Below the pieces are notes generated by a model. It made no database searches. It was given only the letters and a program-made list of their open reading frames with translations, and had not been told where the DNA came from. A stretch of 36,907 nucleotides of DNA from a virus. Its lineage: Duplodnaviria; Caudoviricetes. Both the position numbers and the translations under genes were made by a program. Location of the stretch: positions 1 through 36,907 of the IMG/VR virus record IMGVR_UViG_3300025451_000030, one strand, 5' to 3'. Below, piece after piece: positions 2,425-15,884 of the stretch (position 1 is its first letter; each line of letters begins with the position of its first letter).

Positions 2425-2642
2425 AAACCGAAACGATCACCTGGCACGAACTGCCGGCCGACGGCATGCCCGACGCCGAAACCACTGTGCTGCTGGAACT
2501 GCGCGAGCTGGACGGTGACGGCACCAAGGTTCAGACCGGCTGGCTGGCCCAGTCGGGCTGGGTCGACATCAACGCATGGCCGATCGAGGCTGGCCGCGTC
2601 GTCGCCTGGGCTGACGTGCCTGGCGGGACCGCTGCAGCATGA
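2421..2642 (+). CDS. Small phage protein, DUF551-like
   Basis: ITWHELPADGMPDAETTVL...VVAWADVP pattern; ATGA overlaps on both sides. Confidence 0.6.
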   Translation: MKTETITWHELPADGMPDAETTVLLELRELDGDGTKVQTGWLAQSGWVDINAWPIEAGRVVAWADVPGGTAAA

Positions 2643-3082
2643 ACCACACAGAACTGATTGCGCGGTTGTCCGCCATGTGGGCACAGCTCGACCCTGTGGA
2701 CGAGTGGCGGCCAGTTATCCGCGATGCAATCGACGCGCTGACCCCGCCCGCTGCAGGGGTGCCGGTTGAGCGAATGCTCAGGCCTTTGGTTTGGGCACGG
2801 AAGGACCAACTGCAACATGCCAGCACGCGAGGCGGACTGATGTGCGCCATGTACCCGAACACCGACCGGCGCGCAGACCTGCAGCCGCTGTATGACCAAG
2901 CTGCGCTAGGCGCCGCGCTGAACCTGTGGCCGCGCGACTGCCGTTTGTGCGCGAACTTCACGACGCAGGCAGGAGGGTGCGTGTCCGTGGTTCAGTGCGT
3001 GGACAGCATGCAATTCACGGCGACCACGCCGCGCCAGTATTGGGCGTCGGCGCCTAACGGCCAGGCCCAACGGCTGCCGTAG
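2639..3082 (+). CDS. Hypothetical protein, apparently chimeric (internal attC remnant; ends inside attC1)
   Basis: PVERMLRP is encoded by the attC-arm remnant; CxxC...CxxxxxC in the C-terminal part. Confidence 0.6.
   Translation: MNHTELIARLSAMWAQLDPVDEWRPVIRDAIDALTPPAAGVPVERMLRPLVWARKDQLQHASTRGGLMCAMYPNTDRRADLQPLYDQAALGAALNLWPRDCRLCANFTTQAGGCVSVVQCVDSMQFTATTPRQYWASAPNGQAQRLP
2762..2783 (-). repeat. Degenerate half attC remnant inside ORF 2639-3082
   Basis: CCGGTTGAGCGAATGCTCAGGC matches the family-A right arm CCGGTTGAGCGAATGGTTAGGC at 20/22 positions; no left arm found. Confidence 0.65.
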
Positions 3083-3108
3083 GCAGTCCGTTGCAGCCGT
3101 TGTTGGGC
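3052..3108 (-). repeat. attC-like site 1 (57 bp)
   Basis: GCCTAAC...CAACGGCTGCC-GTA-GGCAGTCCGTTG...GTTGGGC hairpin. Confidence 0.8.
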
Positions 3109-3132
3109 GTTGGTTGCTGACGCTGAACTTTA

Positions 3133-3184
3133 CATTGTGGGCAGTACGAAAACACTAGACAAAGCGCATTTGTGGCAGTACATT
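3133..3184 (+). promoter_or_regulatory. Sigma70-like promoter with direct-repeat operator, copy 1
   Basis: TAGACA(3156-3161)-17 bp-TACATT(3179-3184); CATT(n4)GCAGTAC repeated at 3133 and 3167; AT-rich island. Confidence 0.7.
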
Positions 3185-3227
3185 AATACCACTGCAGCAA
3201 GACGCCGCAGCAACCCAGGAGAGCAAC

Positions 3228-3503
3228 ATGACCGCTACCAAGATCCAAATCGGCATCGACACCAGCATTGACACCACCGAAGACGGCTACGACGGCGGCG
3301 ACGCGGTGATGATCGAATCGCACAACGGCACCGTTTGCATCACTGGCCCGTTTGAGGGCTGGATGGGCTACCAAACGCTGGCTGACCTGCCGATTGAGCA
3401 GGCCGATGAAGCCGACGCCCTGGCCCGCAAGATTGCGGCCGACCCCGTTGCCGAACTCACGGCGCTGGGCTATGACTTGGCCGGCTGGTTCAAGCCGCTG
3501 TGA
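3228..3503 (+). CDS. Cassette gene, acidic hypothetical protein
   Basis: AGGAGA RBS; GTGA overlap with the RHH gene. Confidence 0.75.
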   Translation: MTATKIQIGIDTSIDTTEDGYDGGDAVMIESHNGTVCITGPFEGWMGYQTLADLPIEQADEADALARKIAADPVAELTALGYDLAGWFKPL

Positions 3504-3682
3504 ACCAAGCTCCGGGAAAGGCCAAGCCGGGGCGCAAGCCCCTGGCCGATGGCGATGGCAAGACCGCCCGTGTGCAACTGAAGCTGACGCCGGCCGCGAA
3601 AGCCGATTGGCTGGCGAAAGCCGCCGCTGCCGGTTTGACGCTGCAAGCCTGGGTGGAGTTGCGGTGCAGCGGGAAGCGGTGA
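3500..3682 (+). CDS. Ribbon-helix-helix-like DNA-binding protein, copy 1
   Basis: GRKP basic arm, RVQLKLT strand and two helices (AAAAGLTLQAWV); 56/60 identical to 9267-9449. Confidence 0.7.
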   Translation: MNQAPGKAKPGRKPLADGDGKTARVQLKLTPAAKADWLAKAAAAGLTLQAWVELRCSGKR

Positions 3683-3683
3683 C

Positions 3684-3784
3684 GCCCAACGTTGCCAATG
3701 AGGCGGGGCAAACGGCGCTGCCGCTGCCGGCTACACCCACAACCAGACCCGCCGTTTGACCTCGCCTCGATTGGCGGGTTAGGC
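3684..3784 (-). repeat. attC-like site 2 (101 bp, family B)
   Basis: GCCCAACGTTGCCAATGAGGCG...CGCCTCGATTGGCGGGTTAGGC; near copy at 7891-7989. Confidence 0.85.
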
Positions 3785-3807
3785 CCTGGTGAACGTAGAG
3801 GGAACAA

Positions 3808-4140
3808 ATGAACCGCATGGAGCAACTGCTGGCGTTCTGCGATTGGGAGCGGAAGCACAACCCGCACCCGGAAGGCAAGCCGCATGTGGCGGAGTGGGCT
3901 GCTGCTGAGATTGAACGGCTGAACGGAGAAGTTGCGCTGTTGCGCGCCACGATGGAAGGCGCCACCTACCAACTGAGCAAGGCGCGCATTTGGGGCGGCA
4001 TGGAGTGGCATTACAACCCGTTGCACCCAATGCACTACAGGCCGGCGCTTGATCGTCTGCGCGAAGTGCTGGACGGGCCTAACGCTGTAGCTCACCGGAC
4101 CCTGGAGGCGGAACGCCGCAAGGGGTCCGGTGCAGCGTAG
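3808..4140 (+). CDS. Cassette gene, hypothetical (AAAEIERL coiled-coil motif); reads through most of attC3
   Basis: GAGGG RBS; stop lies inside attC3. Confidence 0.7.
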   Translation: MNRMEQLLAFCDWERKHNPHPEGKPHVAEWAAAEIERLNGEVALLRATMEGATYQLSKARIWGGMEWHYNPLHPMHYRPALDRLREVLDGPNAVAHRTLEAERRKGSGAA

Positions 4141-4148
4141 TGTTAGCG
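4077..4148 (-). repeat. attC-like site 3 (72 bp)
   Basis: GCCTAACGCTGTAGCTCACCGGACCC...GGGGTCCGGTGCAGCGTAGTGTTAGCG. Confidence 0.8.
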
Positions 4149-4307
4149 GGCCGGTGGCTTAGCGCGCAGCAGCACCGCACGCGCCCACTCTAGGCCATGC
4201 TCATCGATCTTTGCCCACACCGCTGGAGGCATGCGGATAGACCGCTGCACCAGGCGCTTGGCTTCCGGGATGGGTGGGCGCCCGCCCTTGTTCTTTGGCT
4301 GTTCCAT
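4143..4307 (-). CDS. Small RHH/antitoxin-like regulator, probably leaderless
   Basis: MEQPKNKGGRPP...VQRSIRMPPAVWAKI; TATACT 6 nt upstream of the ATG; stop TAA lies in the attC3 core. Confidence 0.65.
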   Translation of the reverse strand: MEQPKNKGGRPPIPEAKRLVQRSIRMPPAVWAKIDEHGLEWARAVLLRAKPPAR

Positions 4308-4313
4308 GCGGGC

Positions 4314-4365
4314 AGTATACGTGATGCACAAACCGCTTGCGCTTGCTTTGTTTGTGTGATTCAAT
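4314..4365. promoter_or_regulatory. Divergent promoter region
   Basis: Minus strand: -10 TATACT (4314-4319). Plus strand: TTGCGC-17 bp-TTCAAT with extended TG. Confidence 0.45.
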
Positions 4366-4399
4366 AACACCCATCGACACACCAACCGGAGCAAGCAAC

Positions 4400-4603
4400 A
4401 TGCAAACCACCCACCTGCAAAACATTGGCAAAGTAGCCGCGAAGCCCGCCGAACAGATCAAGGCCGGCGACGTGCTGGTTTGGAACTTCGGCAGCACCAG
4501 CGAAGTGCTGGCTGTTGAGCGCACCGCCAAGACTGTTGTGGTGAAGCTGTCGGGCGGCTACAGCCGTCGCTTTGGCGCCTCCCGCCTGGTGGCGGTGCAA
4601 TGA
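4400..4603 (+). CDS. Cassette gene, small beta-rich (SH3-like) protein
   Basis: GGAG RBS; KPAEQIKAGDVLVWNFG. Confidence 0.7.
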   Translation: MQTTHLQNIGKVAAKPAEQIKAGDVLVWNFGSTSEVLAVERTAKTVVVKLSGGYSRRFGASRLVAVQ

Positions 4604-4818
4604 AGGCGCACCTGGTGAAGATTCAGCGGGTAGCGACCGCTGCCCGCGAATACGACGCGGTGACGGTGTATGTAGGTGATCTGCGCCTGCGCTGCGATGC
4701 TATTGACGACCGAACGATCAGGCTGGCACGAAGGCTGGCAGAGGATTGCGGTGCGACGTTCATGTACGACGAACACAACGCCGAGCGAGTGCGGGCGGCT
4801 TGCGCGATTGCCGGCTAA
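4600..4818 (+). CDS. Cassette gene, hypothetical
   Basis: ATGA overlap; stop TAA is in the attC4 core. Confidence 0.65.
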   Translation: MKAHLVKIQRVATAAREYDAVTVYVGDLRLRCDAIDDRTIRLARRLAEDCGATFMYDEHNAERVRAACAIAG

Positions 4819-4886
4819 CGTTGGAGCTAAGGCGCCGACGTAGGGCCGCAGGCCCGTAGGAGGTCGCCTTGAGCGACCAGTTAGGC
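4813..4886 (-). repeat. attC-like site 4 (74 bp)
   Basis: GGCTAACGTTGGAGCTAAGGCG...CGCCTTGAGCGACCAGTTAGGC. Confidence 0.85.
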
Positions 4887-4906
4887 ATCAACGTGGAGAA
4901 ACAAGC

Positions 4907-5233
4907 ATGGAAGAGTGGGAAGAAGTCGATATACCGACACACCGGCTGAAAGATGCGAAGTGGGTTGCCACCGTGGCCGAGATTCGCAACAACGCCACGG
5001 GCGTGGTTCGCGAGTACCAGGACAACTCCATCATGGAAGACGGCGCGCCCGAGCCGAGCTCTTTCATGTGGGAAGACGGCAACTACGCCTGCGACTGCAA
5101 CCGCAAACTGTTTTTTGCTAGAGCGGCTGGCGAGGATGAGGATTGGGAAAGCGAATGCAGCGATGGCCTCTACTCCGTTCGCGTGCGGAACAAGAAAAGT
5201 GGCCGCGTGTTCTACAGCGAATTTGATGCCTAA
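4907..5233 (+). CDS. Cassette gene, hypothetical (WEDGNYACDCNR motif)
   Basis: GGAG RBS; stop TAA is in the attC5 core. Confidence 0.8.
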   Translation: MEEWEEVDIPTHRLKDAKWVATVAEIRNNATGVVREYQDNSIMEDGAPEPSSFMWEDGNYACDCNRKLFFARAAGEDEDWESECSDGLYSVRVRNKKSGRVFYSEFDA

Positions 5234-5296
5234 CGTGGCCGGTAACCGGCCTGGCCCGGCTTGCCGGGACAGGTCCGGTTGACCCGCCAGTTAGCC
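5228..5296 (-). repeat. attC-like site 5 (69 bp, family E)
   Basis: GCCTAACGTGGCCGGTAACCGG...CCGGTTGACCCGCCAGTTAGCC; unpaired G and T fall on the plus strand. Confidence 0.85.
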
Positions 5297-5339
5297 GGCA
5301 CTGGTGAAACGCCGGCACCTGCCTGAAAGGGCTGATACC

Positions 5340-5702
5340 TTGAACCAAGAGCAGATTGCCCGAGTGGCACACGAAGTGAACCGCGCCTATTGCCAGGCGC
5401 TGGGCGACCACAGCCAGCCAGCATGGGAAGACGCGCCGCAGTGGCAGCGCGACAGCGCCATGCTGGGCGTGAAGCTGCACACCGAAAACCCCGGCGCCAG
5501 CCCTTCCGCCAGCCATGAAAGCTGGATGGCGCAGAAGGTGGCCGAAGGCTGGGTCTACGGCCCCGAGAAGAAGCCAGAGCTGAAGCAGCACCACTGCATC
5601 GTGCCGTTTGACGCGCTGCCGGTGGCGCAGCAGGCGAAGGACTACATATTTCGCGGCGTGGTGCATGCCCTGGCGCACGCGCCGGCCACAGTTGCCGCAT
5701 AG
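5340..5702 (+). CDS. Cassette gene, RyR-domain phage protein
   Basis: IARVAHEVNRAYC...HESWMAQKVAEGWVYGPEK...HHCIVPFDALP...KD fits the RyR repeat signature; TTG start after GAAAGGG (GTG 5304 is an alternative). Confidence 0.8.
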   Translation: MNQEQIARVAHEVNRAYCQALGDHSQPAWEDAPQWQRDSAMLGVKLHTENPGASPSASHESWMAQKVAEGWVYGPEKKPELKQHHCIVPFDALPVAQQAKDYIFRGVVHALAHAPATVAA

Positions 5703-5737
5703 GTGCGCAGATGCCGGGCATGCAGGTATTGGTGTCC

Positions 5738-5837
5738 GGCTAACGTTCGAGCTAAGCAGGAGACAACGGCGTGACCATGCTGGACGAAGCCACAGAAGCG
5801 AGCGCCGTTGGCTCTCTGCTTGAGCGAGGAGTTATGC
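5738..5837 (-). repeat. attC-like site 6 (100 bp, family C); contains the RBS and GTG start of the downstream gene
   Basis: GGCTAACGTTCGAGCTAAGCAGGAGACAACGGC-GTG...GCCGTTGGCTCTCTGCTTGAGCGAGGAGTTATGC. Confidence 0.85.
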
Positions 5838-6631
5838 GCCCGGTGGAGTGCTTACGGACCGTGGCGGCCCTCTATGTTGAGCCGAAGGGCTGCTATGTGG
5901 GCGTGCCGGGTGTTGATGCTTGGGACGAAGCCCGCGATGCCCGCACCTACAACGGCCCGCACCCGGTGGTAGCGCACCCGCCCTGCCAGCGATGGGGCAG
6001 GTTCTGGCACGGCAGCACACGCAAACCGCATCAGTACAAGCTGGGCGACGATGGCGGGTGTTTTGCTGCTGCCCTGGCCGCGCTGCGCCTGAATGGCGGC
6101 GCGCTTGAGCACCCGATGGACTCGCATGCGTGGAAGTATTTCAGGCTGAAGAAGCCGCCGCGCAAAGGTGGGTGGGTTGAGGCCGCGCCAGGCTTGTGGA
6201 CATGCTGCGTGTACCAGGGCCACTACGGGCACCTTGCCGGCAAAGGAACATGGCTGCTTGTGGCTGGCGTGCCAAAGCGCCTGCTTCCCGAACTGCGCTG
6301 GGGCAAGACACCGCAGCGGCTGCACCCTCGCGCCGTGGAGTTGCACGGCTACGAGAAAGCGCGGCGCATTGGAATGATGGCGATGGTGGGCGGCAATGAC
6401 AAAACTGCGATTCGCAACGGCACGCCGCCTGAGTTCCGAGACTTGCTGATTGAGATTGCGCGCAGCGCAGTGAACCCGGTGGAGCAAGGTGCCGCCGCGC
6501 TGGCCCTGTTGAAGCGCATCCGCTACCACGCGCAGCGGCACGCGCTGCCGCGAGACTGGCTGACGGCAGCAGACGAGGTTTTAGGCACTTGGCATGCGGT
6601 GAAACTCACCCATTCCGAGATAGGCGCATAA
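5771..6631 (+). CDS. Cassette gene, DNA cytosine methyltransferase-like phage protein
   Basis: VVAHPPCQRW (motif IV PC-like) and LEHP (motif VI ENV-like); first ~22 codons lie in attC6; stop is in the attC7 core. Confidence 0.6.
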   Translation: MTMLDEATEASAVGSLLERGVMRPVECLRTVAALYVEPKGCYVGVPGVDAWDEARDARTYNGPHPVVAHPPCQRWGRFWHGSTRKPHQYKLGDDGGCFAAALAALRLNGGALEHPMDSHAWKYFRLKKPPRKGGWVEAAPGLWTCCVYQGHYGHLAGKGTWLLVAGVPKRLLPELRWGKTPQRLHPRAVELHGYEKARRIGMMAMVGGNDKTAIRNGTPPEFRDLLIEIARSAVNPVEQGAAALALLKRIRYHAQRHALPRDWLTAADEVLGTWHAVKLTHSEIGA

Positions 6632-6725
6632 CGCCAGGTTAAGCGGGAGACAACAGCCGTGACCAAGTATGAAGACGCGCAAGTGGTGGCCGCTGTTGGC
6701 TCTCCGCTTGAACCGACAGTTAGCC
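6626..6725 (-). repeat. attC-like site 7 (100 bp, family C); contains the RBS and GTG start of the downstream gene
   Basis: GCATAACGCCAGGTTAAGCGGGAGACAACAGCC-GTG...GCTGTTGGCTCTCCGCTTGAACCGACAGTTAGCC. Confidence 0.85.
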
Positions 6726-7489
6726 GTCATGCCGCGCCGCGCGTGATAGCGCAGTTTTCCTGCGGCGCTGCCTCGGCGGTGGCTACCAAGATGGCGCTGG
6801 CCCAGTACAAGGGCGCAGAGGTGGTGATTGCCAATGCGTTTTTGGTGGAAGAGGATGAAGACAACCGCCGCTTCTTGGCCGACTGCGAAGACTGGTTCGG
6901 TCAGCGCGCCCTGCAACTGCGGGATGAGAAGTACGGGGCCAGCGCCGACGAGGTGTGGCGGCGCAAGCGGTTCATGAAGGGGCGCAAGGGTGCGCCGTGC
7001 TCTGGCGAACTGAAGCGCAAGGTGCTGGACAAGGTGAAACGCCCCGACGATGTGCTGATATTTGGCTTCACCGCCGAAGAAGCAGACCGCTTCGATGACT
7101 TCCAAGAGCGCAACCCGCAACTGAAAGCCACTGCGCCGCTGGTGGAGAACGGGATTGGGAAGGCCGACTGTCTTGCGATGGTGCAGCGGGCCAGCATCAA
7201 GCTGCCGCTAGCCTACCGCCAGGGCTACAGCAACGCGAACTGCACCGGCTGCCCCAAGGGCGGCGAGGGCTACTGGAACCACGTTCGCAAGGTTCACCCG
7301 CTGGTGTTCCGTGCGCGCCTGGAGCGGCAGGAATCCATCGGCCCAGGCGCGTACTTCTTCCGCGACCGCGACACCGAAGAACGCTTCGGGTTGAAGGACT
7401 TGGACCCGAAGGCGGGCCGCCACGATGAACCGATGCCAGCGTGCAGTTTCTTCTGCGAGCTGGGCGAACAAGAGTACGCCGCCTCATGA
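6659..7489 (+). CDS. Cassette gene, PAPS-reductase-like (adenine nucleotide alpha-hydrolase) protein with Cys cluster
   Basis: FSCGAASAVA PP-loop variant, GAPC, NANCTGCPKGGEGYW, terminal CSFFC; first ~22 codons lie in attC7. Confidence 0.7.
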   Translation: MTKYEDAQVVAAVGSPLEPTVSRHAAPRVIAQFSCGAASAVATKMALAQYKGAEVVIANAFLVEEDEDNRRFLADCEDWFGQRALQLRDEKYGASADEVWRRKRFMKGRKGAPCSGELKRKVLDKVKRPDDVLIFGFTAEEADRFDDFQERNPQLKATAPLVENGIGKADCLAMVQRASIKLPLAYRQGYSNANCTGCPKGGEGYWNHVRKVHPLVFRARLERQESIGPGAYFFRDRDTEERFGLKDLDPKAGRHDEPMPACSFFCELGEQEYAAS

Positions 7490-7490
7490 C

Positions 7491-7590
7491 GGCTAACGTT
7501 TGAGCTAACCGGAAAACCCGGCAGCTACAGAAGATGATAGGCGCCACGGTGCCGCCTGCCGGGGTTTTCCGGTTGAGCGAATGGTTAGGC
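7491..7590 (-). repeat. attC-like site 8 (100 bp, family A)
   Basis: GGCTAACGTTTGAGCTAACCGGAAAACCCGGCAGC...GCCTGCCGGGGTTTTCCGGTTGAGCGAATGGTTAGGC. Confidence 0.9.
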
Positions 7591-7618
7591 CACGCATTGG
7601 TGGCAAGTGAGGAACGAC

Positions 7619-7882
7619 ATGAGAAGCACACTGTTGGCTGCAACCGCGTTGTCGGTGATGGCTGGTATGGGAGCGATTTCGCAGTCAATGCCTGCACCGC
7701 GCAAGGACAGCAACCGCGACTACAGGGACGCAGACATTGAGCGCGCCTTCGCTCGAAACGAGCGCCCGGCACCAGGCCCCGAAGAAGTGAAGCGTGCGGC
7801 GGTGCGCGCCGAGATTGCAGCGCACAACGCCGAAGTCGAGCGCCGCAAGGCCGAGAAGCGCGCTCGCAGGCTGACCCGCTGA
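7619..7882 (+). CDS. Cassette gene, hypothetical (hydrophobic N-terminus, basic coiled-coil C-terminus)
   Basis: GAGGA RBS; fills the cassette. Confidence 0.65.
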   Translation: MRSTLLAATALSVMAGMGAISQSMPAPRKDSNRDYRDADIERAFARNERPAPGPEEVKRAAVRAEIAAHNAEVERRKAEKRARRLTR

Positions 7883-7890
7883 ATTGCGGG

Positions 7891-7989
7891 GCCTAACGTT
7901 GCCGATGAGGCGGGGCAAACGGCCGCGCCGTGATGGCAGATGAACAAACCGCCCCGCCGTTTGACCTCGCCTCGATTGGCGGGTTAGGC
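7891..7989 (-). repeat. attC-like site 9 (99 bp, family B)
   Basis: Arms nearly identical to site 2, different loop. Confidence 0.85.
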
Positions 7990-8016
7990 GTGGCGAACGA
8001 AGCGAAAGGACATGGA

Positions 8017-8226
8017 ATGACTGAATGGACCAAGCCGGAATACAGGGTTGTGCGCGACAACTACAACGGCTATGAGGTGCAGATTCGGCGCTGGTGGCAT
8101 TGGCCGTTTTGGTGGCAAGCGGCTGGGAGCAACACCCACTCAAGCGTGGAAGCCGCAGAGACGTTTGCGGAGGGGCACGCACGCGCACGCGGCCCCGTGA
8201 AGCATCTCGGGAGGCTGGGCGCCTAA
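8017..8226 (+). CDS. Cassette gene, Trp-rich hypothetical (alternative in-frame start inside attC9 at 7930/7933)
   Basis: AAAGGA RBS; stop is in the attC10 core. Confidence 0.7.
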   Translation: MTEWTKPEYRVVRDNYNGYEVQIRRWWHWPFWWQAAGSNTHSSVEAAETFAEGHARARGPVKHLGRLGA

Positions 8227-8320
8227 CGTTTGAGCTAACCGGAAAACCCGGCAGCTACAGAAGATGGAAGGCACCACGGTGCCGCCTGCCGGGGTTTTCC
8301 GGTTGAGCGAATGGTTAGGC
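8221..8320 (-). repeat. attC-like site 10 (100 bp, family A)
   Basis: Minus strand reads R'' GCCTAAC, 5-bp CATTC, L'' GCTCAACC ... L' GGTTAGC, 6-bp TCAAAC, R' GTTAGGC, the canonical attC layout. Confidence 0.9.
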
Positions 8321-8342
8321 CTGGTGGCCGAAGGGGAAGACG

Positions 8343-8516
8343 ATGGAATTTGCTATGGGGATTTTGATTGGGTTTCTGCTGATGATGCTCTTGATTGGCA
8401 TTGCCGTCTGGGGAATGCACATGGGCCTTGAACTTGCTGTGGACGGCACAAAGAAGAAAGGCCACTTCTGCGCCTATGGCAAAAAGTGGAAAGTTGTTGA
8501 GACACCCGAGGCCTAG
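8343..8516 (+). CDS. Cassette gene, 57-aa membrane protein (not in ORF track)
   Basis: MEFAMGILIGFLLMMLLIGIAVWGMH...ETPEA*; GAAGGGGAAG RBS; lower GC. Confidence 0.7.
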   Translation: MEFAMGILIGFLLMMLLIGIAVWGMHMGLELAVDGTKKKGHFCAYGKKWKVVETPEA

Positions 8517-8518
8517 GG

Positions 8519-8618
8519 GCCTAACGTTTGAGCTAACCGGAAAACCCGGCAGCTACCGAATATGCAAGGCGCCACGGTGCCGCCTGCCGGGGTTTTCCGG
8601 TTGAGCGAATGGTTAGGC
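8519..8618 (-). repeat. attC-like site 11 (100 bp, family A)
   Basis: Arms identical to site 10, loop variant. Confidence 0.9.
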
Positions 8619-8641
8619 CTGGCGGCCGAAGGGGAAGAACG

Positions 8642-8830
8642 ATGACAAGCTGGATTCTGGTACTCACGATTTTGACCAGCGGCCACGGCGCAGCACTGAC
8701 AAACGTGCCCGGCTTCACGGCGCAGCAAGACTGCGCGGCAGCAGCAGCCGAGTGGCTCCGCGCAATGAACGCCCAGCCCGGAGGCTTCCGCTACTACAGC
8801 GCAATCTGTCTGCCGCAGAAGAGGGCCTAA
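8642..8830 (+). CDS. Cassette gene, small secreted/membrane protein with Cys pair
   Basis: MTSWILVLTIL...GFTAQQDCAAAA...AICLP; stop is in the attC12 core. Confidence 0.7.
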   Translation: MTSWILVLTILTSGHGAALTNVPGFTAQQDCAAAAAEWLRAMNAQPGGFRYYSAICLPQKRA

Positions 8831-8893
8831 CGTTGCCGGTAACCGGATTGACCCGGCTTGCCGGGGCAATTCCGGTTGAGCGGCGTGTTGGGC
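8825..8893 (-). repeat. attC-like site 12 (69 bp, family E)
   Basis: GCCTAACGTTGCCGGTAACCGG...CCCGGCTTGCCGGG...CCGGTTGAGCGGCGTGTTGGGC; same loop as site 5. Confidence 0.85.
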
Positions 8894-8918
8894 GTTGTTG
8901 CCGGAGCGCGTGTCTTTA

Positions 8919-8970
8919 CATTGGTGGCAGTACGAAAACACTAGACAAGGCGCATTGTTGGCAGTACATT
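8919..8970 (+). promoter_or_regulatory. Sigma70-like promoter with direct-repeat operator, copy 2
   Basis: TAGACA(8942-8947)-17 bp-TACATT(8965-8970); same GGCAGTAC repeats as 3133-3184. Confidence 0.7.
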
Positions 8971-9015
8971 AACACCACTGCAGCAAGTCGCCGCAGCAAC
9001 CCACAGGAGAGCAAC

Positions 9016-9270
9016 ATGACAGAAGTTCAAGCCCTGCAAGCCGAAGCCACCCGCCAAGATGCGATTGCTCAGGCCCTGCGCGCCGATGTGCAAACCGCAG
9101 AAGCTGCCGCCGCCGCGATCACGGACCAAGATTCGACCGAAGCAGGCATTGCCTGGGCGCGTGCGGGCGGATTGCGCCACGCAATGGACGAAGCCATCGA
9201 AGCCATGCGCAAGGCTCACCGCGATGCAGCTGACATCGAAGACCCGGACGGCCTGCGGGCGGAAGCATGA
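9016..9270 (+). CDS. Cassette gene, Ala-rich helical hypothetical
   Basis: AGGAGA RBS; ATGA overlap with the RHH gene. Confidence 0.7.
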   Translation: MTEVQALQAEATRQDAIAQALRADVQTAEAAAAAITDQDSTEAGIAWARAGGLRHAMDEAIEAMRKAHRDAADIEDPDGLRAEA

Positions 9271-9449
9271 ACCAAGCCCCGGAGAAAGCCAAGCCGGGGC
9301 GCAAGCCCCTGGCCGATGGCGAGGGCAAGACGGCCCGCGTGCAACTGAAGCTCACGCCGGCCGACAAAGCCGATTGGCTGGCAAAGGCAGCCGCTGCCGG
9401 TTTGACGCTGCAGGCGTGGGTAGAGAAGCGGTGCAGCGGTAAGCGATGA
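9267..9449 (+). CDS. Ribbon-helix-helix-like DNA-binding protein, copy 2
   Basis: Paralog of 3500-3682. Confidence 0.7.
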   Translation: MNQAPEKAKPGRKPLADGEGKTARVQLKLTPADKADWLAKAAAAGLTLQAWVEKRCSGKR

Positions 9450-9450
9450 C

Positions 9451-9469
9451 GCCCAACTAGTCGATATGC
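9451..9469 (-). other. attI-like simple site (lone core plus degenerate L box) terminating array 1
   Basis: Minus strand GCATATC-GACTA-GTTGGGC = 7-bp degenerate L box, 5-bp spacer, GTTRRRY, with no attC hairpin. Same geometry as the attI1 simple site. Confidence 0.55.
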
Positions 9470-9849
9470 CAACTTTCCAAACTCCGAACCGATGGCGCCG
9501 CTACAACGCCACACCAGGCGCACACCAGCGCCGGCAGCGTGCGCGGGAAGCCGCCAGCATTGCAGGCCCCGCGCCGGCCTACCCGCCGACCGCCCCACTG
9601 CATGGCGACTGGCTGGGCGGCTGCATCAACGGACAGACCGTGATCGTGCGGCTGATGCGCGATCCGTCGCACAGGTCAGACCAATGGGCCGCCGAGATCG
9701 ACGGCGGAACGGTGGCCGATGCTGCTGGCTTGACGCGGCTGTGGGCGCTGCTGCATCCGCGCTGGGGCAAGGCGCCGAGCAAGCGGGCATTGGCGACGAT
9801 GCAAGAACGCTGGACCGACCGAGACGAACACGACGCCGCAATGGCGTGA
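9466..9849 (+). CDS. Hypothetical phage protein; its start overlaps the attI-like site
   Basis: ORF fills the gap to the next RBS; no clear RBS of its own. Confidence 0.5.
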   Translation: MPTFQTPNRWRRYNATPGAHQRRQRAREAASIAGPAPAYPPTAPLHGDWLGGCINGQTVIVRLMRDPSHRSDQWAAEIDGGTVADAAGLTRLWALLHPRWGKAPSKRALATMQERWTDRDEHDAAMA

Positions 9850-9856
9850 GGACACC

Positions 9857-10444
9857 ATGAGCAACACTGACGAACTTTGCGCCGCTGCACAACAGGCCCT
9901 GGTGGCAATGGAGAAGTACCCGGTCACGGTGAATCACTGGAAAGCGGTGCTGCTGCCTGCCGCTGATGCACTGCGCGCCGCCCTGGCGCAGCAGCCCGCC
10001 GCCCCTGACCGCTGGAATGAGGGGTTCAAGCACGGCCAGTGGCTGGCGAAGCACTCCGCCCCTGTTGTGGAGCGCGCAGACTCTGCAACGCCTGTTGTGG
10101 AGCGTAGCGCCGGGAATGTGAGCGACAACGCCGCCCCTGTGGCGCCTGCCCGCTGGTACTGCGTGACCAACTACGGAGGCGCCACGCTGTGCACTGGCCG
10201 CGACGATGCCGCCGAGGTGGCGGCCGAGCAGGACATCGCCATTCCGCGCCATGGGCCGCACCGGGCCGTGATGCTGGCAGAAGTGCCGCCTGCGCGAGTG
10301 CCGCTGACCGAGGCGGAGATTGCGTCAATGCAGCGCAAAGCAAACACAACCGGCGTTCAGTTTTTACAGTCGTCAACCGTGCGATGGATCGTTCGCGCCA
10401 TCGAAGCCGCCCACGGCATCACGGCGCAAGGAGAACTGAAGTGA
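9857..10444 (+). CDS. Mosaic hypothetical phage protein (ALRAALAQ... PLTEAEI... RAIEAAHGI motifs)
   Basis: GAGGA RBS; motifs typical of betaproteobacterial phage early-region proteins; internal PVVER duplication. Confidence 0.7.
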   Translation: MSNTDELCAAAQQALVAMEKYPVTVNHWKAVLLPAADALRAALAQQPAAPDRWNEGFKHGQWLAKHSAPVVERADSATPVVERSAGNVSDNAAPVAPARWYCVTNYGGATLCTGRDDAAEVAAEQDIAIPRHGPHRAVMLAEVPPARVPLTEAEIASMQRKANTTGVQFLQSSTVRWIVRAIEAAHGITAQGELK

Positions 10445-10728
10445 CCGACGCACTGCACATTGCTGACGGCTACTCAGCCCGCCCCTACGGTGACGGCTAC
10501 ATCATCCACCACGAAAGCGGAGGCGCCTGGGCGGCTGATCTGGCGATGGTTGCCGCCGTGCTGGAGATTGCCCGCCTGCGCGCAGCCGACGACGCCCACC
10601 GTGCCGCATTTGCAGCGATCTACACCGCGCTGCAACCGGCTGACCCCGACCGCGCCACATGGCCGGCTGAGATTGCCCGCCTGCGCGCCATGCTGGCCGC
10701 CGTCATTGTTGGGAACCGGACATCATGA
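10441..10728 (+). CDS. Hypothetical phage protein with duplicated EIARLRA
   Basis: AGGAG RBS, GTGA overlap. Confidence 0.6.
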   Translation: MTDALHIADGYSARPYGDGYIIHHESGGAWAADLAMVAAVLEIARLRAADDAHRAAFAAIYTALQPADPDRATWPAEIARLRAMLAAVIVGNRTS

Positions 10729-10865
10729 GCACCCTGCTGGAGGTTCTGGGCCTGGTGCTGCTGATCCTGCTGGTGGTCGCCCTGTGGTTCGTGTTCCGAG
10801 GCGACCCGAGCCTGATCGATCTGTGGCACCGGGCCGCGATGCAGGCCGCTGGAGGTGTGCGGTGA
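10725..10865 (+). CDS. 46-aa membrane protein (not in ORF track)
   Basis: MSTLLEVLGLVLLILLVVALWFVF...; ATGA and GTGA overlaps. Confidence 0.6.
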   Translation: MSTLLEVLGLVLLILLVVALWFVFRGDPSLIDLWHRAAMQAAGGVR

Positions 10866-11089
10866 AGGTCAGGATGATCAAGCGGCGCCACGACCGGCGC
10901 ACCACCTTCAAGGCGCTGCTGTGGGCCGGCATGAACGACGAAATGCGCTGGCACACGCTGGAGTACGACGGCGATGACCCATGGGACGACGACATGCCCG
11001 GCGACGCATGCCTGCACTGCCACGGCGACGGCATGGACCCGGACTGCGACTACCTGTTGCAGTGCCCGGACTGCGGCGGGAGTTGGTGA
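10862..11089 (+). CDS. Small protein with DnaJ-like CxxCxGxG zinc finger
   Basis: CLHCHGDG...CPDCGG; GGAGG RBS. Confidence 0.6.
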   Translation: MKVRMIKRRHDRRTTFKALLWAGMNDEMRWHTLEYDGDDPWDDDMPGDACLHCHGDGMDPDCDYLLQCPDCGGSW

Positions 11090-11307
11090 TGGCGGCAGTA
11101 ACGCTGCATTTCCGAGCCGACCGCCTGCACAAGACCTGCGGCGTGTGCGGGGCGGATCTGAACCGGCGCGTCAGCCGCTGGTGGCTGACGAACTGCTGGA
11201 CGGCCGACCCGAAGGAATACCGCGCGCAGCAGAGCTGCCACCCGGCAGAGACTGTGCGGCCCTGCGGAGTACTGGACCGCAGCAAGACGCCCAACCGACG
11301 GAGATAA
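11089..11307 (+). CDS. Small Cys-rich protein; ends inside attC13
   Basis: TGATG coupling; CGVCG. Confidence 0.55.
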   Translation: MAAVTLHFRADRLHKTCGVCGADLNRRVSRWWLTNCWTADPKEYRAQQSCHPAETVRPCGVLDRSKTPNRRR

Positions 11308-11359
11308 GCCGCCGGCCGCCGGCCGCCTGCGGGCGGTCGGCTTGATCGACCTGTTCGGC
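11289..11359 (-). repeat. attC-like site 13 (71 bp)
   Basis: GCCCAACCGACGGAGATAAGCCG...CGGCTTGATCGACCTGTTCGGC. Confidence 0.75.
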
Positions 11360-11386
11360 CTCTGGCGCCGAAGCGAAAGGACTGTG

Positions 11387-11578
11387 ATGAGCCTGAACTA
11401 CCGAGAGACTGACGACGAGTGCCCCGGTTGCGGAGCGACTGCCCGCGGCAGGCGAGACAACAAGCCGAACTCTCCGCAGGGGTTGAGCGAGTGCCCGCAA
11501 TGCGGCGCAGAGAAATGCTGCATGTGTGACATGGGCGATGACGTGGAATGCGCCTCGTGCGACCTAGGCGACGAGTAG
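11387..11578 (+). CDS. Cassette gene, Cys-rich zinc-finger protein
   Basis: CPGC, CPQC, CCMC, CASC; AAAGGA RBS. Confidence 0.7.
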   Translation: MSLNYRETDDECPGCGATARGRRDNKPNSPQGLSECPQCGAEKCCMCDMGDDVECASCDLGDE

Positions 11579-11579
11579 G

Positions 11580-11631
11580 GCCTAACGTCATGCTAGCCGG
11601 CGCGTAGCGTCCGGCTGAGCTGGGGTTGGGC
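11580..11631 (-). repeat. attC-like site 14 (52 bp, very short)
   Basis: GCCTAACGTCATGCTAGCCGGCGC-GTA-GCGTCCGGCTGAGCTGGGGTTGGGC. Confidence 0.75.
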
Positions 11632-11656
11632 GGCTGTGCGACGAAGCGAAGGACGA

Positions 11657-11881
11657 ATGATGAGCATGGACTACATCCGCCGCACCTACGGTGTGCCGGC
11701 CAAACGCGGGATGACCGTCACCATCTGCGGCGACGGAACGCGCTTCCAGGCGCGCATCGTCGGGTCTCGCGGGCAGTACCTGCGGCTATGGATTCCAGGC
11801 GGCAAGCGCTCGCACCTGTACCACCCGACCGATTCGCTGGAGTACCCGGCCGCAGCAAAGGGCAAGACGCCCAACGGCTGA
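11657..11881 (+). CDS. Cassette gene, small phage protein (YIRRTYGVPAKRG...YHPT family)
   Basis: AAGGA RBS; ends PNG* inside attC15. Confidence 0.75.
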   Translation: MMSMDYIRRTYGVPAKRGMTVTICGDGTRFQARIVGSRGQYLRLWIPGGKRSHLYHPTDSLEYPAAAKGKTPNG

Positions 11882-11935
11882 ACTCACCGGACGGCCCGGC
11901 CTGCCGGGCAGGTCCGGTGCAGTGACGTGTTGGGC
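11869..11935 (-). repeat. attC-like site 15 (67 bp, family D arms)
   Basis: GCCCAACGGCTGAACTCACCGG...CCGGTGCAGTGACGTGTTGGGC. Confidence 0.85.
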
Positions 11936-11964
11936 GGCTGGTTGATTGACGAACAGGAACAAGC

Positions 11965-12207
11965 ATGCTGAAACCTGAACACCTAGACGGCGCACTGCGG
12001 CAAGAACAGATGCAGGAGCGGGCGGATTGGAGAGCCGCCAACGAACCCGGCAGCGCGTCAGCTTCTCCATGGGAGCGCGGGCGCCTGGATGCGCTTGCCG
12101 GCAAAGCGGCGCCCGACCTTGTGCGCCCGGACGGCGCGTGGTCGGCACGGCTGTACGCGGCGGGGTGGGATCGCGGGGCGGAGCGGCGCAAGACGACCAA
12201 CGTTTGA
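11965..12207 (+). CDS. Cassette gene, hypothetical (WERGRLDA...AAGWDRG, Rmf/CrpP-like pattern)
   Basis: AGGA RBS; ends TNV* inside attC16. Confidence 0.6.
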   Translation: MLKPEHLDGALRQEQMQERADWRAANEPGSASASPWERGRLDALAGKAAPDLVRPDGAWSARLYAAGWDRGAERRKTTNV

Positions 12208-12293
12208 GCTAACCGGACCGGCCAGGCGCCGGGATGGTGACAGATGAACAGGACGGACCGCCTGGCTGGGTCCGGTTGAGCGAATGGTTAGGC
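12195..12293 (-). repeat. attC-like site 16 (99 bp; family-A outer arms, family-D inner stem)
   Basis: GACCAACGTTTGAGCTAACCGGACCGGCCAGGCG...CGCCTGGCTGGGTCCGGTTGAGCGAATGGTTAGGC. Confidence 0.88.
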
Positions 12294-12550
12294 CCGGCTC
12301 AGAAGCGCGCCAAGAATTGACCGCTGCCCTGGACAAAAGCGGCAGTGTGGTGCTGATAGACGTGGATGGCGAAATCCTGTTTTACGCGGCAGACGGCAAG
12401 ATGAAGGTGCAGCGGCTGGGCCAGGAGTGCGAGGGTTGCATTGCTGCGAATATGAAGCTGGCCGATGCTGTGGCGCAGGCATGGAACGCGAAACTCAAGC
12501 GCGCCGCTGACCCAACGAACAGCCGCCCGCGCTGTGGTCTTGGGGCCTAA
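12284..12550 (+). CDS. Cassette gene, hypothetical; ATG lies in the attC16 arm
   Basis: Fills the cassette; stop is in the attC17 core; start uncertain. Confidence 0.55.
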   Translation: MVRPGSEARQELTAALDKSGSVVLIDVDGEILFYAADGKMKVQRLGQECEGCIAANMKLADAVAQAWNAKLKRAADPTNSRPRCGLGA

Positions 12551-12645
12551 CGCTTGAAGTGAGGCGCCTTTGACGGCGCGAAGAAAGGACGACGATGAAC
12601 CAACATGACACGCCGGCAAAGGTCGCCTCGACTGATGGGTTAGGC
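12545..12645 (-). repeat. attC-like site 17 (101 bp); RBS and ATG of the downstream gene lie in its loop
   Basis: GCCTAACGCTTGAAGTGAGGCGCCTTTGACGGCG...AAAGGACGACGATG...CGCCGGCAAAGGTCGCCTCGACTGATGGGTTAGGC. Confidence 0.85.
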
Positions 12646-12963
12646 CCGCTGGTTGCTGACGCGCTGACAGCCGCAGACGAATACGCGGAAGCAGCCGGCC
12701 ACGCCGAGTGCTGGACGGGCACGCGCGCCAGCTACAACCAGCACCTAGCCGATGCGCGCACCAAGGCGCGCCAGGCCATTGATGCGGCCGTGGCCGCAGA
12801 GCGCGGGCGGTGGGAAGCCTTGCTTGAAGATCGCGCCCAGATTCATGGCGAGTCGTCGCGCATCTATGCGCGCCTAGCGAGCGCTGTGCGCGCCGGGGCC
12901 GGTGACATTGTTTTGGGGCAACTGCTTCGCGCCGAGGTGCAGGGAAGAGGGCCTAACGGCTGA
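12595..12963 (+). CDS. Cassette gene, hypothetical; starts in the attC17 loop and ends in attC18
   Basis: AAAGGA RBS plus ATG inside the hairpin loop. Confidence 0.7.
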   Translation: MNQHDTPAKVASTDGLGPLVADALTAADEYAEAAGHAECWTGTRASYNQHLADARTKARQAIDAAVAAERGRWEALLEDRAQIHGESSRIYARLASAVRAGAGDIVLGQLLRAEVQGRGPNG

Positions 12964-13048
12964 ACTCACCGGACCGGCCAGGCGCCGGGGTGGTGACAAA
13001 CGCGGACCCGCCCCGCCTGGCTGGGTCCGGTGCAGTGATGGGTTAGGC
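12951..13048 (-). repeat. attC-like site 18 (98 bp, family D)
   Basis: GCCTAACGGCTGAACTCACCGGACCGGCCAGGCG...CGCCTGGCTGGGTCCGGTGCAGTGATGGGTTAGGC. Confidence 0.88.
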
Positions 13049-13071
13049 CTGGTGGCCGAAGGGGAAGAACG

Positions 13072-13263
13072 ATGGACATGCGACAGACGCTGCCGGAACT
13101 GTGGCGCAGTCACGATGGCTTGTGGTGGATTGGGCAGGCCGTGGCGTTGATGCTGGCCCTGTCGCTTCTGTTCAACGGCTACGGCGGCCCCGTTGCTGCG
13201 GCTGTTGGCTACGCGCTGGCAGTGCTGGTTGACATCCGCGAGGCGGTGTCGAAGCGGGCCTAA
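13072..13263 (+). CDS. Cassette gene, 2-TM membrane protein
   Basis: Two hydrophobic segments; stop is in the attC19 core. Confidence 0.7.
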   Translation: MDMRQTLPELWRSHDGLWWIGQAVALMLALSLLFNGYGGPVAAAVGYALAVLVDIREAVSKRA

Positions 13264-13321
13264 CGGCTGAACTCACCGGACCGGCCGGCCTGCCGGCTGG
13301 GTCCGGTGCAGTGGGTTAGGC
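13258..13321 (-). repeat. attC-like site 19 (64 bp, family D; 3-bp spacer deletion)
   Basis: Right arm CCGGTGCAGTGGGTTAGGC versus CCGGTGCAGTGATGGGTTAGGC in site 18. Confidence 0.8.
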
Positions 13322-13344
13322 GTGGTGAACGAAGGGGAAGAACG

Positions 13345-13548
13345 ATGCAATGCAAGAACTGCGGCAAGGCCGCCGACCAGCACAACGCCAAAACTCGGGC
13401 ATGCCCCGGCGGCCGGAAGCACCGGACGCACGGTTACCCGTGGTTCCACCAGACGCAGGTTTTTGAAGCGCACAAGCAGTGCCCCAACAAGCGTGGCGGT
13501 GTGTGCGGCAAGGCTGGCCCGTGCTTGAGCCCAGCATGTGGTGGCTGA
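13345..13548 (+). CDS. Cassette gene, Cys/His-rich small protein
   Basis: CKNCG..H..CP..; GAAGGGGAAG RBS. Confidence 0.65.
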   Translation: MQCKNCGKAADQHNAKTRACPGGRKHRTHGYPWFHQTQVFEAHKQCPNKRGGVCGKAGPCLSPACGG

Positions 13549-13549
13549 C

Positions 13550-13648
13550 GCCTAACGTTTGAGCTAACCGGAAAACCCGGCAGCTACCGAATTGAGAAGC
13601 GCTGCGGCGCGGCCTGCCGGGGTTTTCCGGTTGAGCGAATGGTTAGGG
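13550..13648 (-). repeat. attC-like site 20 (99 bp, family A)
   Basis: Arms as in sites 8/10/11; ends GTTAGGG. Confidence 0.88.
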
Positions 13649-15105: not shown

Positions 15106-15177
15106 GCTTGCTCCTTAAACTTGGGCCGTCATCTTGAGGGTGGACTTGAAATGTCGCCTGCCGGGCAACAATGGCGC

Positions 15178-15882
15178 ATGAAAGCTATCAACCTGCCCGG
15201 AGTCCTTGTCGCCGCCATCATGACCGCTTGCGGTGGTGGTGGTGGTGGAGACCTGCAAAACACGCAGGCTGCGGCTTGCGTCCCAAAAATGCCGGTGCGG
15301 CTGTTGATGTTTGGGGATTCGACGTTCAGCGGCACCGGAGCATCCCAGGATTTGAACGGAAACCTGACATACGCTCCAGCGCCAATCATCCAGCGTGCAA
15401 TGGACCTGCAGTTCGGAGCTGGCGCTGTGCAGGTGCTCAATTACTCGGTGATGGGCAGCTCCAGCGCTGATTTGGTGGCGGGTATCGATGGCGTCAATGC
15501 ACCGTGGCCCACGCCGGCGTTGGGTGGAGACATCGCCATCATCAACCATGGGATCAACGACCAGTTGCGCCAAACGCCCATTGCGGCATACCGGGCGAAC
15601 CTTGCGGCCTTTACCGCAGTAGGCATTCCCGTGGTGCTGCAGACGCCAAACCCCACGTTTCGCGGCTGGGAAAGCGTCGCCCACATTCAGGCTGTGCGGG
15701 ACACCGCGGCAGCTGCTGGCCGCACGCTGGCCGACGTGCACGGGTACATGAGTGGTCTCGCCAACGCTGCGCAATACTTCCCCGACGGAGTGCACCCGAA
15801 CGACGCCGGGTATCAGCTGATCGTCAACAACGTGACGCTGCCGGCCTTGGTGCCCCTGGTCGCTAAGCTGCGCTGCCAGTGA
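15178..15882 (+). CDS. SGNH/GDSL hydrolase lipoprotein (antisense moron)
   Basis: Lipobox MTA-C followed by poly-G; blocks FGDS, G, GIND and DGVHP. Confidence 0.88.
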   Translation: MKAINLPGVLVAAIMTACGGGGGGDLQNTQAAACVPKMPVRLLMFGDSTFSGTGASQDLNGNLTYAPAPIIQRAMDLQFGAGAVQVLNYSVMGSSSADLVAGIDGVNAPWPTPALGGDIAIINHGINDQLRQTPIAAYRANLAAFTAVGIPVVLQTPNPTFRGWESVAHIQAVRDTAAAAGRTLADVHGYMSGLANAAQYFPDGVHPNDAGYQLIVNNVTLPALVPLVAKLRCQ

Positions 15883-15884
15883 AT

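Follow-up and report, generated by a model that had tools for sequence, protein, structure and literature searches.

An inverted phage cassette array in which attC-like hairpins probably provide the start signals and N-termini of their own genes

The locus studied here raises the question of whether one short DNA sequence can serve both as a recombination site and as the beginning of a gene. Integron models place the gene on the top strand with the attC site 3' of it and regard attC as a barrier to translation. The window, i.e., the whole stretch of 36,907 nucleotides that was analysed, is a viral contig of 36.9 kb (completeness ~50% according to CheckV). Its minus strand encodes terminase, portal, protease, capsid, and tail-tube proteins, and small plus-strand genes, separated by attC-like hairpins, fill the first 14 kb. 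An earlier note on this DNA had proposed that two of these hairpins, attC6 and attC7, contain the Shine-Dalgarno sequence (SD) and start codon of their own gene and are opened by ribosomes finishing the preceding cassette. The feature is real and differs from known integron cassettes in its architecture: We consider it likely that the contig carries an inverted phage cassette array in which the hairpins of attC6, attC7, and attC17 supply the SD, the start codon, and the N-terminus of their own gene. The relevant elements are the following:

3052–13648, minus strand: attC-like array of 20 sites (52–101 nt) in a single orientation, with the genes on the plus strand
5738–5837, minus strand (canonical top strand): attC6, 100 nt, with R' core 5738–5744 and R'' 5831–5837; extrahelical bases G 5822 and T 5815
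5758–5773, plus strand: SD AGGAG in the attC6 stem (5758–5762) and GTG start 5771
5771–6631, plus strand: ORF 5771, 286 aa, with a leader of ~28 residues (22 codons in attC6) followed by a PHROG 12600 domain
6626–6725, minus strand: attC7, 100 nt, inverted like attC6; extrahelical bases G 6710 and T 6703
6645–6661, plus strand: SD GGGAGA in the attC7 stem and GTG start 6659
6659–7489, plus strand: ORF 6659, 276 aa, with a leader of ~24 residues followed by a PAPS-reductase-family domain (PHROG 424)
7491–7590: attC8, with core GGCTAAC at 7491
12545–12645, minus strand: attC17, with SD AAAGGA and ATG 12595 in the loop, in another reading frame than those of attC6 and attC7

Both 100-nt sites display the anatomy of integron attC sites, with R boxes of the form RYYYAAC / GTTRRRY (the R'' of attC6 reads GTTATGC), L boxes, spacers of 5–6 nt, a hairpin within the range of ~55–140 nt, and, on the bottom-strand R''-L'' arm, an extrahelical G16 and T23/24 six pairs apart. 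Our site detector found 17 sites on the plus strand of the contig (14 of them with the extra G) and none on the minus strand or in 881,811 shuffled bases, and it gave one false match in 45 kb of R100. Neighbouring cores are reciprocally complementary, matching at 7/7 positions at 16 of 19 junctions (e.g., GTTATGC/GCATAAC or GTTAGCC at 6719 with GGCTAAC at 7491). As in canonical cassettes, the end core thus complements the inverse core of the attC that the cassette carries, but the genes lie on the bottom strand instead of being top-strand genes with a 3' attC. The array qualifies as a CALIN, having at least two attC sites on one strand within 4 kb but no intI beside it, and it is not a complete integron in this contig, where no intI adjoins it and a PF00589 search of the ~50% complete sequence found no tyrosine recombinase; intI genes are present in related viral contigs. 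Rfam returned 0 matches, and attC7 had no match among cultured phages.

Where the integrase cuts these sites determines to which gene the hairpin belongs. According to the accessible text of Nivina 2016 (PMC5027507), the bottom strand of attC has a 3' arm with an extra G at position 16 and a T at 23/24, and the integrase cuts it at the AAC of R'. It is the plus strand of our contig that shows this bottom-strand anatomy (G5822/T5815 and G6710/T6703), as does the aadA1 attC that we used as a control and that the detector placed, in R100, on the strand antisense to aadA1. Taken together, these observations imply that the phage genes lie on the attC bottom strand; core complementarity is symmetric and therefore cannot decide the side of the cut. 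The same polarity prevails among related viral loci, where 61 of 109 units were sense, 16 antisense, and 32 ambiguous when judged by their longest ORF and where an SD with start near the 5' end was found in 64 of 141 units on the sense strand versus 3 on the other. The units of MAG G007, a bacterial genome with similar sites, were 0 sense, 24 antisense, and 3 ambiguous. It is thus well supported that the plus (sense) strand is the recombinogenic bottom strand and that the attC sites are inverted relative to their genes. This inversion, which the earlier note did not recognise, is what allows an attC to work as initiation module of its own gene.

The borders of the cassettes lead to the same assignment. 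They are given here with a slash at the breakpoint:

5744–6631, plus strand: attC6 cassette (hairpin and gene), putatively mobile, from AA/C to AA/C
6632–7496, plus strand: putative attC7 cassette (hairpin and gene), ending at the AA/C of attC8

In alignments between loci that include gene sequence, the classed ends lay at the left core in 34 cases and at the right core in 0, while 13 alignments started at the left core (11 of them with at least 99% identity) and 11 started at the right core with 82–92% identity, 10 of the latter in the ORF 5771 family; the alignment pairs behind these counts are not independent. Breakpoints between unlike hairpins fall at a core of just 3–7 shared bases. For the attC6 cassette, a contig of sequencing run X3 from another study covers 5740–6632 with 1 difference, the contigs of runs X13 and X15 begin at 5740 after unlike DNA, and homology with locus L013 ends at 6633. 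Among the joints listed from run contigs, none directly marked the excision of the attC6 or attC7 cassette. Loci L003, L008, and L011 (with their duplicates) as well as L012 carry identical cassettes beside different neighbours, which suggests recent shuffling. Given the breakpoints at the left AA/C, the mobile unit would read hairpin-gene-TAA with its attC inverted relative to the gene, and a cassette border at the left AA/C is well supported by these comparisons. The earlier note was therefore right to speak of a hairpin's “own gene”.

Under canonical polarity, by contrast, the attC of an upstream cassette would donate a start to a headless incoming cassette and thereby create combinatorial fusions. 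Indeed, one and the same gene body can carry different hairpins, with the junction exactly at the right core (the 11 starts above), and one hairpin type can be found on several genes. However, the extrahelical bases identify the plus strand as bottom strand, near-identical segments begin at the left core, no alignment ends at the right core, and related arrays end beside intI with a hairpin-less AA/C, so that we give this scenario hardly any credence. Similarly, a crossover at the right G/TT, which would assign the start to the upstream cassette, is largely refuted by the extrahelical bases and breakpoints. On the inverted reading, the less similar right-core starts instead point to older replacements of the hairpin head on a retained gene body. 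A comparison of 25 hairpin pairs gave a mixed picture, with the upstream side more alike in most pairs and the downstream side in several.

The integrase that would act on such an array can be found in related loci. An IntI scoring above the TIGR02249 cut-off lies directly after the last cassette in four of them (L178, L157, L204, and L100), one of which is a complete genome with terminal repeats. The geometry of intI and attC is normal in these loci, and the cassette genes point towards intI; in three of the four, a hairpin-less AA/C is located immediately before intI. A Terminase_6N search gave no match in these four records, whose viral status is therefore based on their IMG/VR classes (G012 with direct terminal repeats, 100% complete; G011 a provirus, 95%; G009 and G010 linear, 66%). 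An integrase near locus L086 was rejected as not being an IntI. Because our contig lacks an integrase of its own while related viral contigs have IntI, an integron integrase provided in trans by the host or a co-infecting phage would cut at the left AA/C. A possible insertion point is found within the array:

9452–9458, plus strand: hairpin-less GCCCAA/C core that closes a duplicated cassette (3109–3690 resembles 8894–9457)

This core looks like the array end of IntI-bearing loci, resembling these intI-side ends in position only, and two contigs of the source run X1 have different DNA before 9451. It is likely an attI-like or attG-like insertion point.

With no integrase in the contig and none in three of the five viral records tested for IntI, the hairpins could also be seen as conserved boundary repeats that are shuffled by homologous recombination and are not integrase substrates. 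Against this stand the complete attC anatomy, the 7/7 matches between neighbouring cores at 16/19 junctions, breakpoints at very short cores between unlike hairpins, and the IntI genes beside related arrays, and we regard it as very unlikely.

The start signals of attC6 and attC7 are built into the stems. GGAGA is paired in both (5759–5763 and 6646–6650), and the two GTG codons each lie exactly 60 nt 5' of the right-core G (5831 and 6719), with an SD-start spacing of 8 in attC6 and 9 in attC7 due to one extra C before the attC7 GTG. From there, the frames stay open for another 266 and 256 codons beyond the site to form ORFs of 286 and 276 aa, so that both hairpins do contain the SD and GTG of a long ORF as originally proposed. 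At attC17, the SD lies in an open loop with a calculated opening cost of 0.9 kcal/mol, and the ORF of 122 aa has no later start signal; a contig of run X2 covers 12549–12958 with 0 differences.

We then asked how common such internal starts are across viral sites, using loci picked by our own patterns and a crude SD rule but no gene caller (which had misassigned many frames). Out of 263 unique sites, we counted the 244 with at least 250 nt downstream, including those of the contig itself, and defined hairpins of 88 nt or more as long. An internal SD with ATG or GTG was present in 71 of 244 sites, i.e., 66 of 113 long but 5 of 131 short ones, and the counts corresponding to the 66 are 8 for the opposite strand and 19 ± 3 with shuffled interiors. 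These starts ran on for at least 45 codons past the site in 52 of 71 cases, representing 46 protein families, versus a permutation expectation of 33.5 ± 3.1 (maximum 45; n = 5000). Genes without a downstream start signal of their own made up 45 of the 52 run-on cases but only 4 of the 19 early-stopping ones (p = 4e-7). When the sites were grouped by downstream sequence into 207 clusters, the median table was 40/5/4/14 with a worst p of 5e-6. The 71 starts distribute over the three frames as 42, 20, and 9, and none of the 9 runs on. Start signals in long hairpins may thus be under selection, with two of the three frames usable. Use of the internal starts for translation is strongly supported by these statistics, with a frame match and a lack of downstream starts far beyond chance, and the idea that an attC may double as initiation module of its own cassette therefore holds up well. 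There are also sites where it does not work this way: In 8 of 12 viral loci of the attC6/7 family, the site is a longer variant whose GTG does not fit the reading frame, with the downstream gene bearing its own SD in 6 of these 8, and the frame of an attC7 copy in locus L002 stops after 5 codons.

What remains is the chance that the sites are inverted but the true starts lie downstream, so that the leaders are merely open frames through related hairpins. The proteins themselves provide arguments for and against this. ORF 5771 ends with the TAA at 6629–6631 inside the R' core of attC7, and its PHROG 12600 match begins at residue 29. It had no Pfam match and no PDB sequence match; its best Foldseek matches were all C5 methyltransferases, if weak ones (E 2.7e-3 at best, TM 0.39), its Atlas neighbour was PF00145 (score 0.91), and P71, C72, and E113 are invariant among 52 sequences, C5 methyltransferases being recognised by a catalytic Pro-Cys motif. 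All this points weakly to a C5 DNA-methyltransferase-like domain. Residues 1–28 were predicted with pLDDT below 50 and are not covered by the alignment behind the predicted model. ORF 6659 had no Pfam or NCBIfam match, but a PAPS reductase family profile covers its domain (PHROG 424, E 8e-41) and PDB 21fy chain C, “PptA”, matches from residue 25 (E 1e-58). ORF 6659 is a close homolog of this PptA, for which no relevant paper was found in the accessible literature, and possibly a DNA-modification enzyme. The cargo likely consists of DNA-modifying enzymes, and judging from it the array may shuffle counter-defence genes.

Only the leader is common to both proteins (best BLASTP E 2.1), in line with the proposal that two unrelated enzymes share similar N-termini, and an attC7-type leader heads three unrelated proteins in total, namely ORF 6659, a 47-codon Cys-rich ORF of L003, and a DUF3268 protein of L271, which bears out the suggestion to look for it on other phage proteins. 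For ORF 6659, no SD-bearing start was found within 90 nt 3' of attC7, and the L003 and L271 ORFs have no downstream SD with start either. By contrast, ORF 5771 has rival starts at ATG 5834, GTG 5843, and GTG 5861 (with GGAG at 12 nt), which makes the internal start of attC6 less secure than that of attC7. The earlier note had named homologs devoid of any attC-derived leader as evidence against it, and one half of this was found: Of the 63 homologs of ORF 5771 that lie outside cassettes, 57 begin no more than 15 nt from the domain and lack a leader. Yet all 12 cassette-form homologs (14 called by pattern, from which L083 and L089 were removed by eye for having no hairpin) have an in-frame start within their differing hairpins, though 7 of the 12 have a scored downstream start as well.

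Host sites offer arguments for either view. A site in MAG G039 has the same SD and GTG in its stem followed by a stop inside the site, and 14 of 46 long sites of G007 also score an internal SD with start, as expected if these signals were incidental, but the frame stays open past the site for only 3 of the 11 G007 starts that could be tested. Considering also the statistics of run-on and missing starts across viral sites, we deem downstream starts improbable and favour starts within the hairpins. The right arm would then encode a linker of the AVGSxLExxV type that is predicted with low confidence.

How would ribosomes gain access to a start signal that is buried in a stem? The computed RNA hairpins of attC6 and attC7 have folding energies of −42.7 and −43.8 kcal/mol (z −3.5 and −4.3; none of 200 shuffles was as stable), with pairing probabilities of 0.98 for the SD and about 0.67 for the GTG. 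According to the earlier note, ribosomes terminating at the end of the preceding cassette open the hairpin and make expression dependent on position. In its strict form, this means that the SD of attC6 and attC7 becomes accessible only when a ribosome terminates at the core TAA and that expression hangs on the upstream neighbour. Besides the 98% pairing of the SD, such coupling is favoured by a stop that precedes the SD by 14 nt at attC7 and by 14–15 nt in 5 of 11 sites with the SD in the stem, by a ten-codon mini-ORF (5711–5743) that ends at the TAA in the left core of attC6, and by published termination-reinitiation at short attC ORFs (reviewed in PMC8876359, as far as its accessible text goes). 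The distance of 14 nt between TAA and SD that had been noted is correct for attC7 (TAA 6629–6631) but does not apply to attC6, where the long upstream ORF already stops at 5702 and thus 55 nt away. Moreover, upstream stops at the core TAA are not enriched, with 5/11 in stem-SD sites, 17/36 in loop-SD sites, and 69/160 in sites without an internal start, a comparison of low power. The start region costs 22–24 kcal/mol to open in the full hairpin, and by calculation 14–20 kcal/mol remain after a terminating ribosome has melted the lower stem. The attC6 cassette is also found behind other neighbours. We therefore doubt that expression hinges on coupling, and the proposed opening by ribosomes of the preceding cassette is not borne out. 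Nor is a general dependence on position, since most in-frame SDs are located in the loop: Only 22 of 52 are paired by more than 50%, and the others lie in a purine-rich loop.

In transcripts ending less than ~40 nt past the start, SD pairing drops to 0.6 or less and opening costs to 7–12 kcal/mol. Together with the lack of stop enrichment, this favours co-transcriptional ribosome loading, as judged from equilibrium folding: Ribosomes would load mainly while the transcript still lacks the right arm (up to ~40 nt past the start), and their presence would afterwards keep the stem from closing, with at most some assistance from upstream termination at attC7. The paired SD itself is probably an inherited structure given that the G039 host site has the same SD and GTG stem; attC6 and attC7 would have co-opted a stem element of a host-type attC family.

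This kinship is apparent in the chromosomal integrons of Rubrivivax-like Burkholderiales. Four MAGs (G007, G039, G045, and G033; a Rubrivivax MAG and relatives) contain chromosomal arrays with 17–70 pattern matches and the same L''-R'' arm as the phage sites, including about 70 matches to the phage-type arm in G007, which also encodes an IntI above cut-off, and the GGAGACAAC stem is found in such host sites. Unlike the phage arrays, those of the G007 type have canonical polarity (24 antisense, 0 sense) and longer inner stems, and their internal starts mostly stop early. The attC6/7 pattern itself matches 3 MAGs with titles that include Rubrivivax (1) and Burkholderiaceae (1), and based on these matches the phage host is probably a member of the Burkholderiales.

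Several components of this picture have precedents in the accessible texts, i.e., phage CALINs, short attC ORFs, ORF-11 of attI1, and one in-frame cassette fusion. Our sites share with the integron attC of Nivina 2016 (PMC5027507) the R and L boxes, G16 and T23 six pairs apart, a purine-rich bottom strand, and the crossover in the AAC of R', but here the genes lie on the bottom strand, the hairpin is 5' of its own gene, and the stop codon is in R' rather than R''. Like the array described here, the phage CALINs of Qi 2023 (PMC9892861) are integrase-less attC clusters in phage genomes with methyltransferase cargo, but they mostly have 2–4 sites instead of 20, and the sole detected site of the TJE1 phage CALIN is in canonical orientation; in the accessible main text of that study, the terms “start codon”, “ribosome”, and “N-termin” are all absent. 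Short ORFs in attC and ORF-11/17/18 in attI1 (Jacquier 2009 and Hanau-Bercot 2002, via PMC8876359) similarly show that an SD and start in a recombination site affect cassette translation, but there a peptide of the upstream cassette or platform is coupled to the next gene, whereas here it is the gene's own start fused in frame. ORF-11-type coupling was seen in L002 but not at attC6 and attC7, whose frames continue for 266 and 256 codons. Closest to the fusion is gcuF1-blaOXA-28 (Hocquet et al., via PMC8876359), where read-through adds an N-terminal extension to the gene of the next cassette, yet this is a single case originating from an upstream gene, compared to in-site starts in 46 protein families; PMC11511950 also belongs to this literature on cassette short ORFs and in-frame fusion. 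The inverted integron-integrase group of Cury 2016 (bioRxiv 030866) is an orientation variant as well, but with intI flipped relative to attC instead of flipped cassette genes. No paper on inverted phage arrays or attC-encoded N-termini was found by a search whose reach did not extend to most subscription papers.

Whole phage arrays thus have opposite polarity to the integron models, with sites that encode part of a protein, so that one 100-nt sequence is under three constraints, namely as DNA hairpin, as start signal, and as coding sequence. Such genes would be placed in the wrong cassette by annotation tools or lose part of their N-termini. Beyond this locus, we tentatively entertain a widespread phage integron branch whose attC sites act as portable “gene heads”: Joining a start-bearing hairpin to a headless body at the R'' core, subject to a grammar of two frames, would create new cassettes and give old ones another head. 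Such exchanges of heads are relevant to how cassettes first arise; if this reading is true, they would be a visible route of cassette genesis, and recurring PVERxVR-type linkers in phage proteins would be attC fossils. One likely fossil lies within ORF 2639–3082, where 2762–2783 appears to be a decayed attC8-type right arm that reads PVERMLRP and has turned into a protein linker.

Other parts of the contig deserve brief mention. Near-identical sites of 99–100 nt occur at 7491–7590, 8221–8320, 8519–8618, and 13550–13648, and in three of these four the loop ATG does not match the frame of the downstream gene, which itself has an SD-like sequence. The loop ATG of attC16 (12195–12293) does not share the frame of the site's 88-aa gene, for which ATG 12284 is a possible start, and position 12234 has a different base in other samples. 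A stretch of lower GC content at 15121–17306 includes a plus-strand gene of the GDSL-lipase family amid the tail genes. Finally, the array contains promoter-like sequences:

3156–3184, with a second copy at 8942–8970, plus strand: sigma70-like promoter directed along the genes, by consensus match only

Such cassette-borne promoters could take the place of Pc, although the 3 matches compare to 1.4 expected. The two copies sit in a 90-nt repeat (3128–3217 and 8914–9003).
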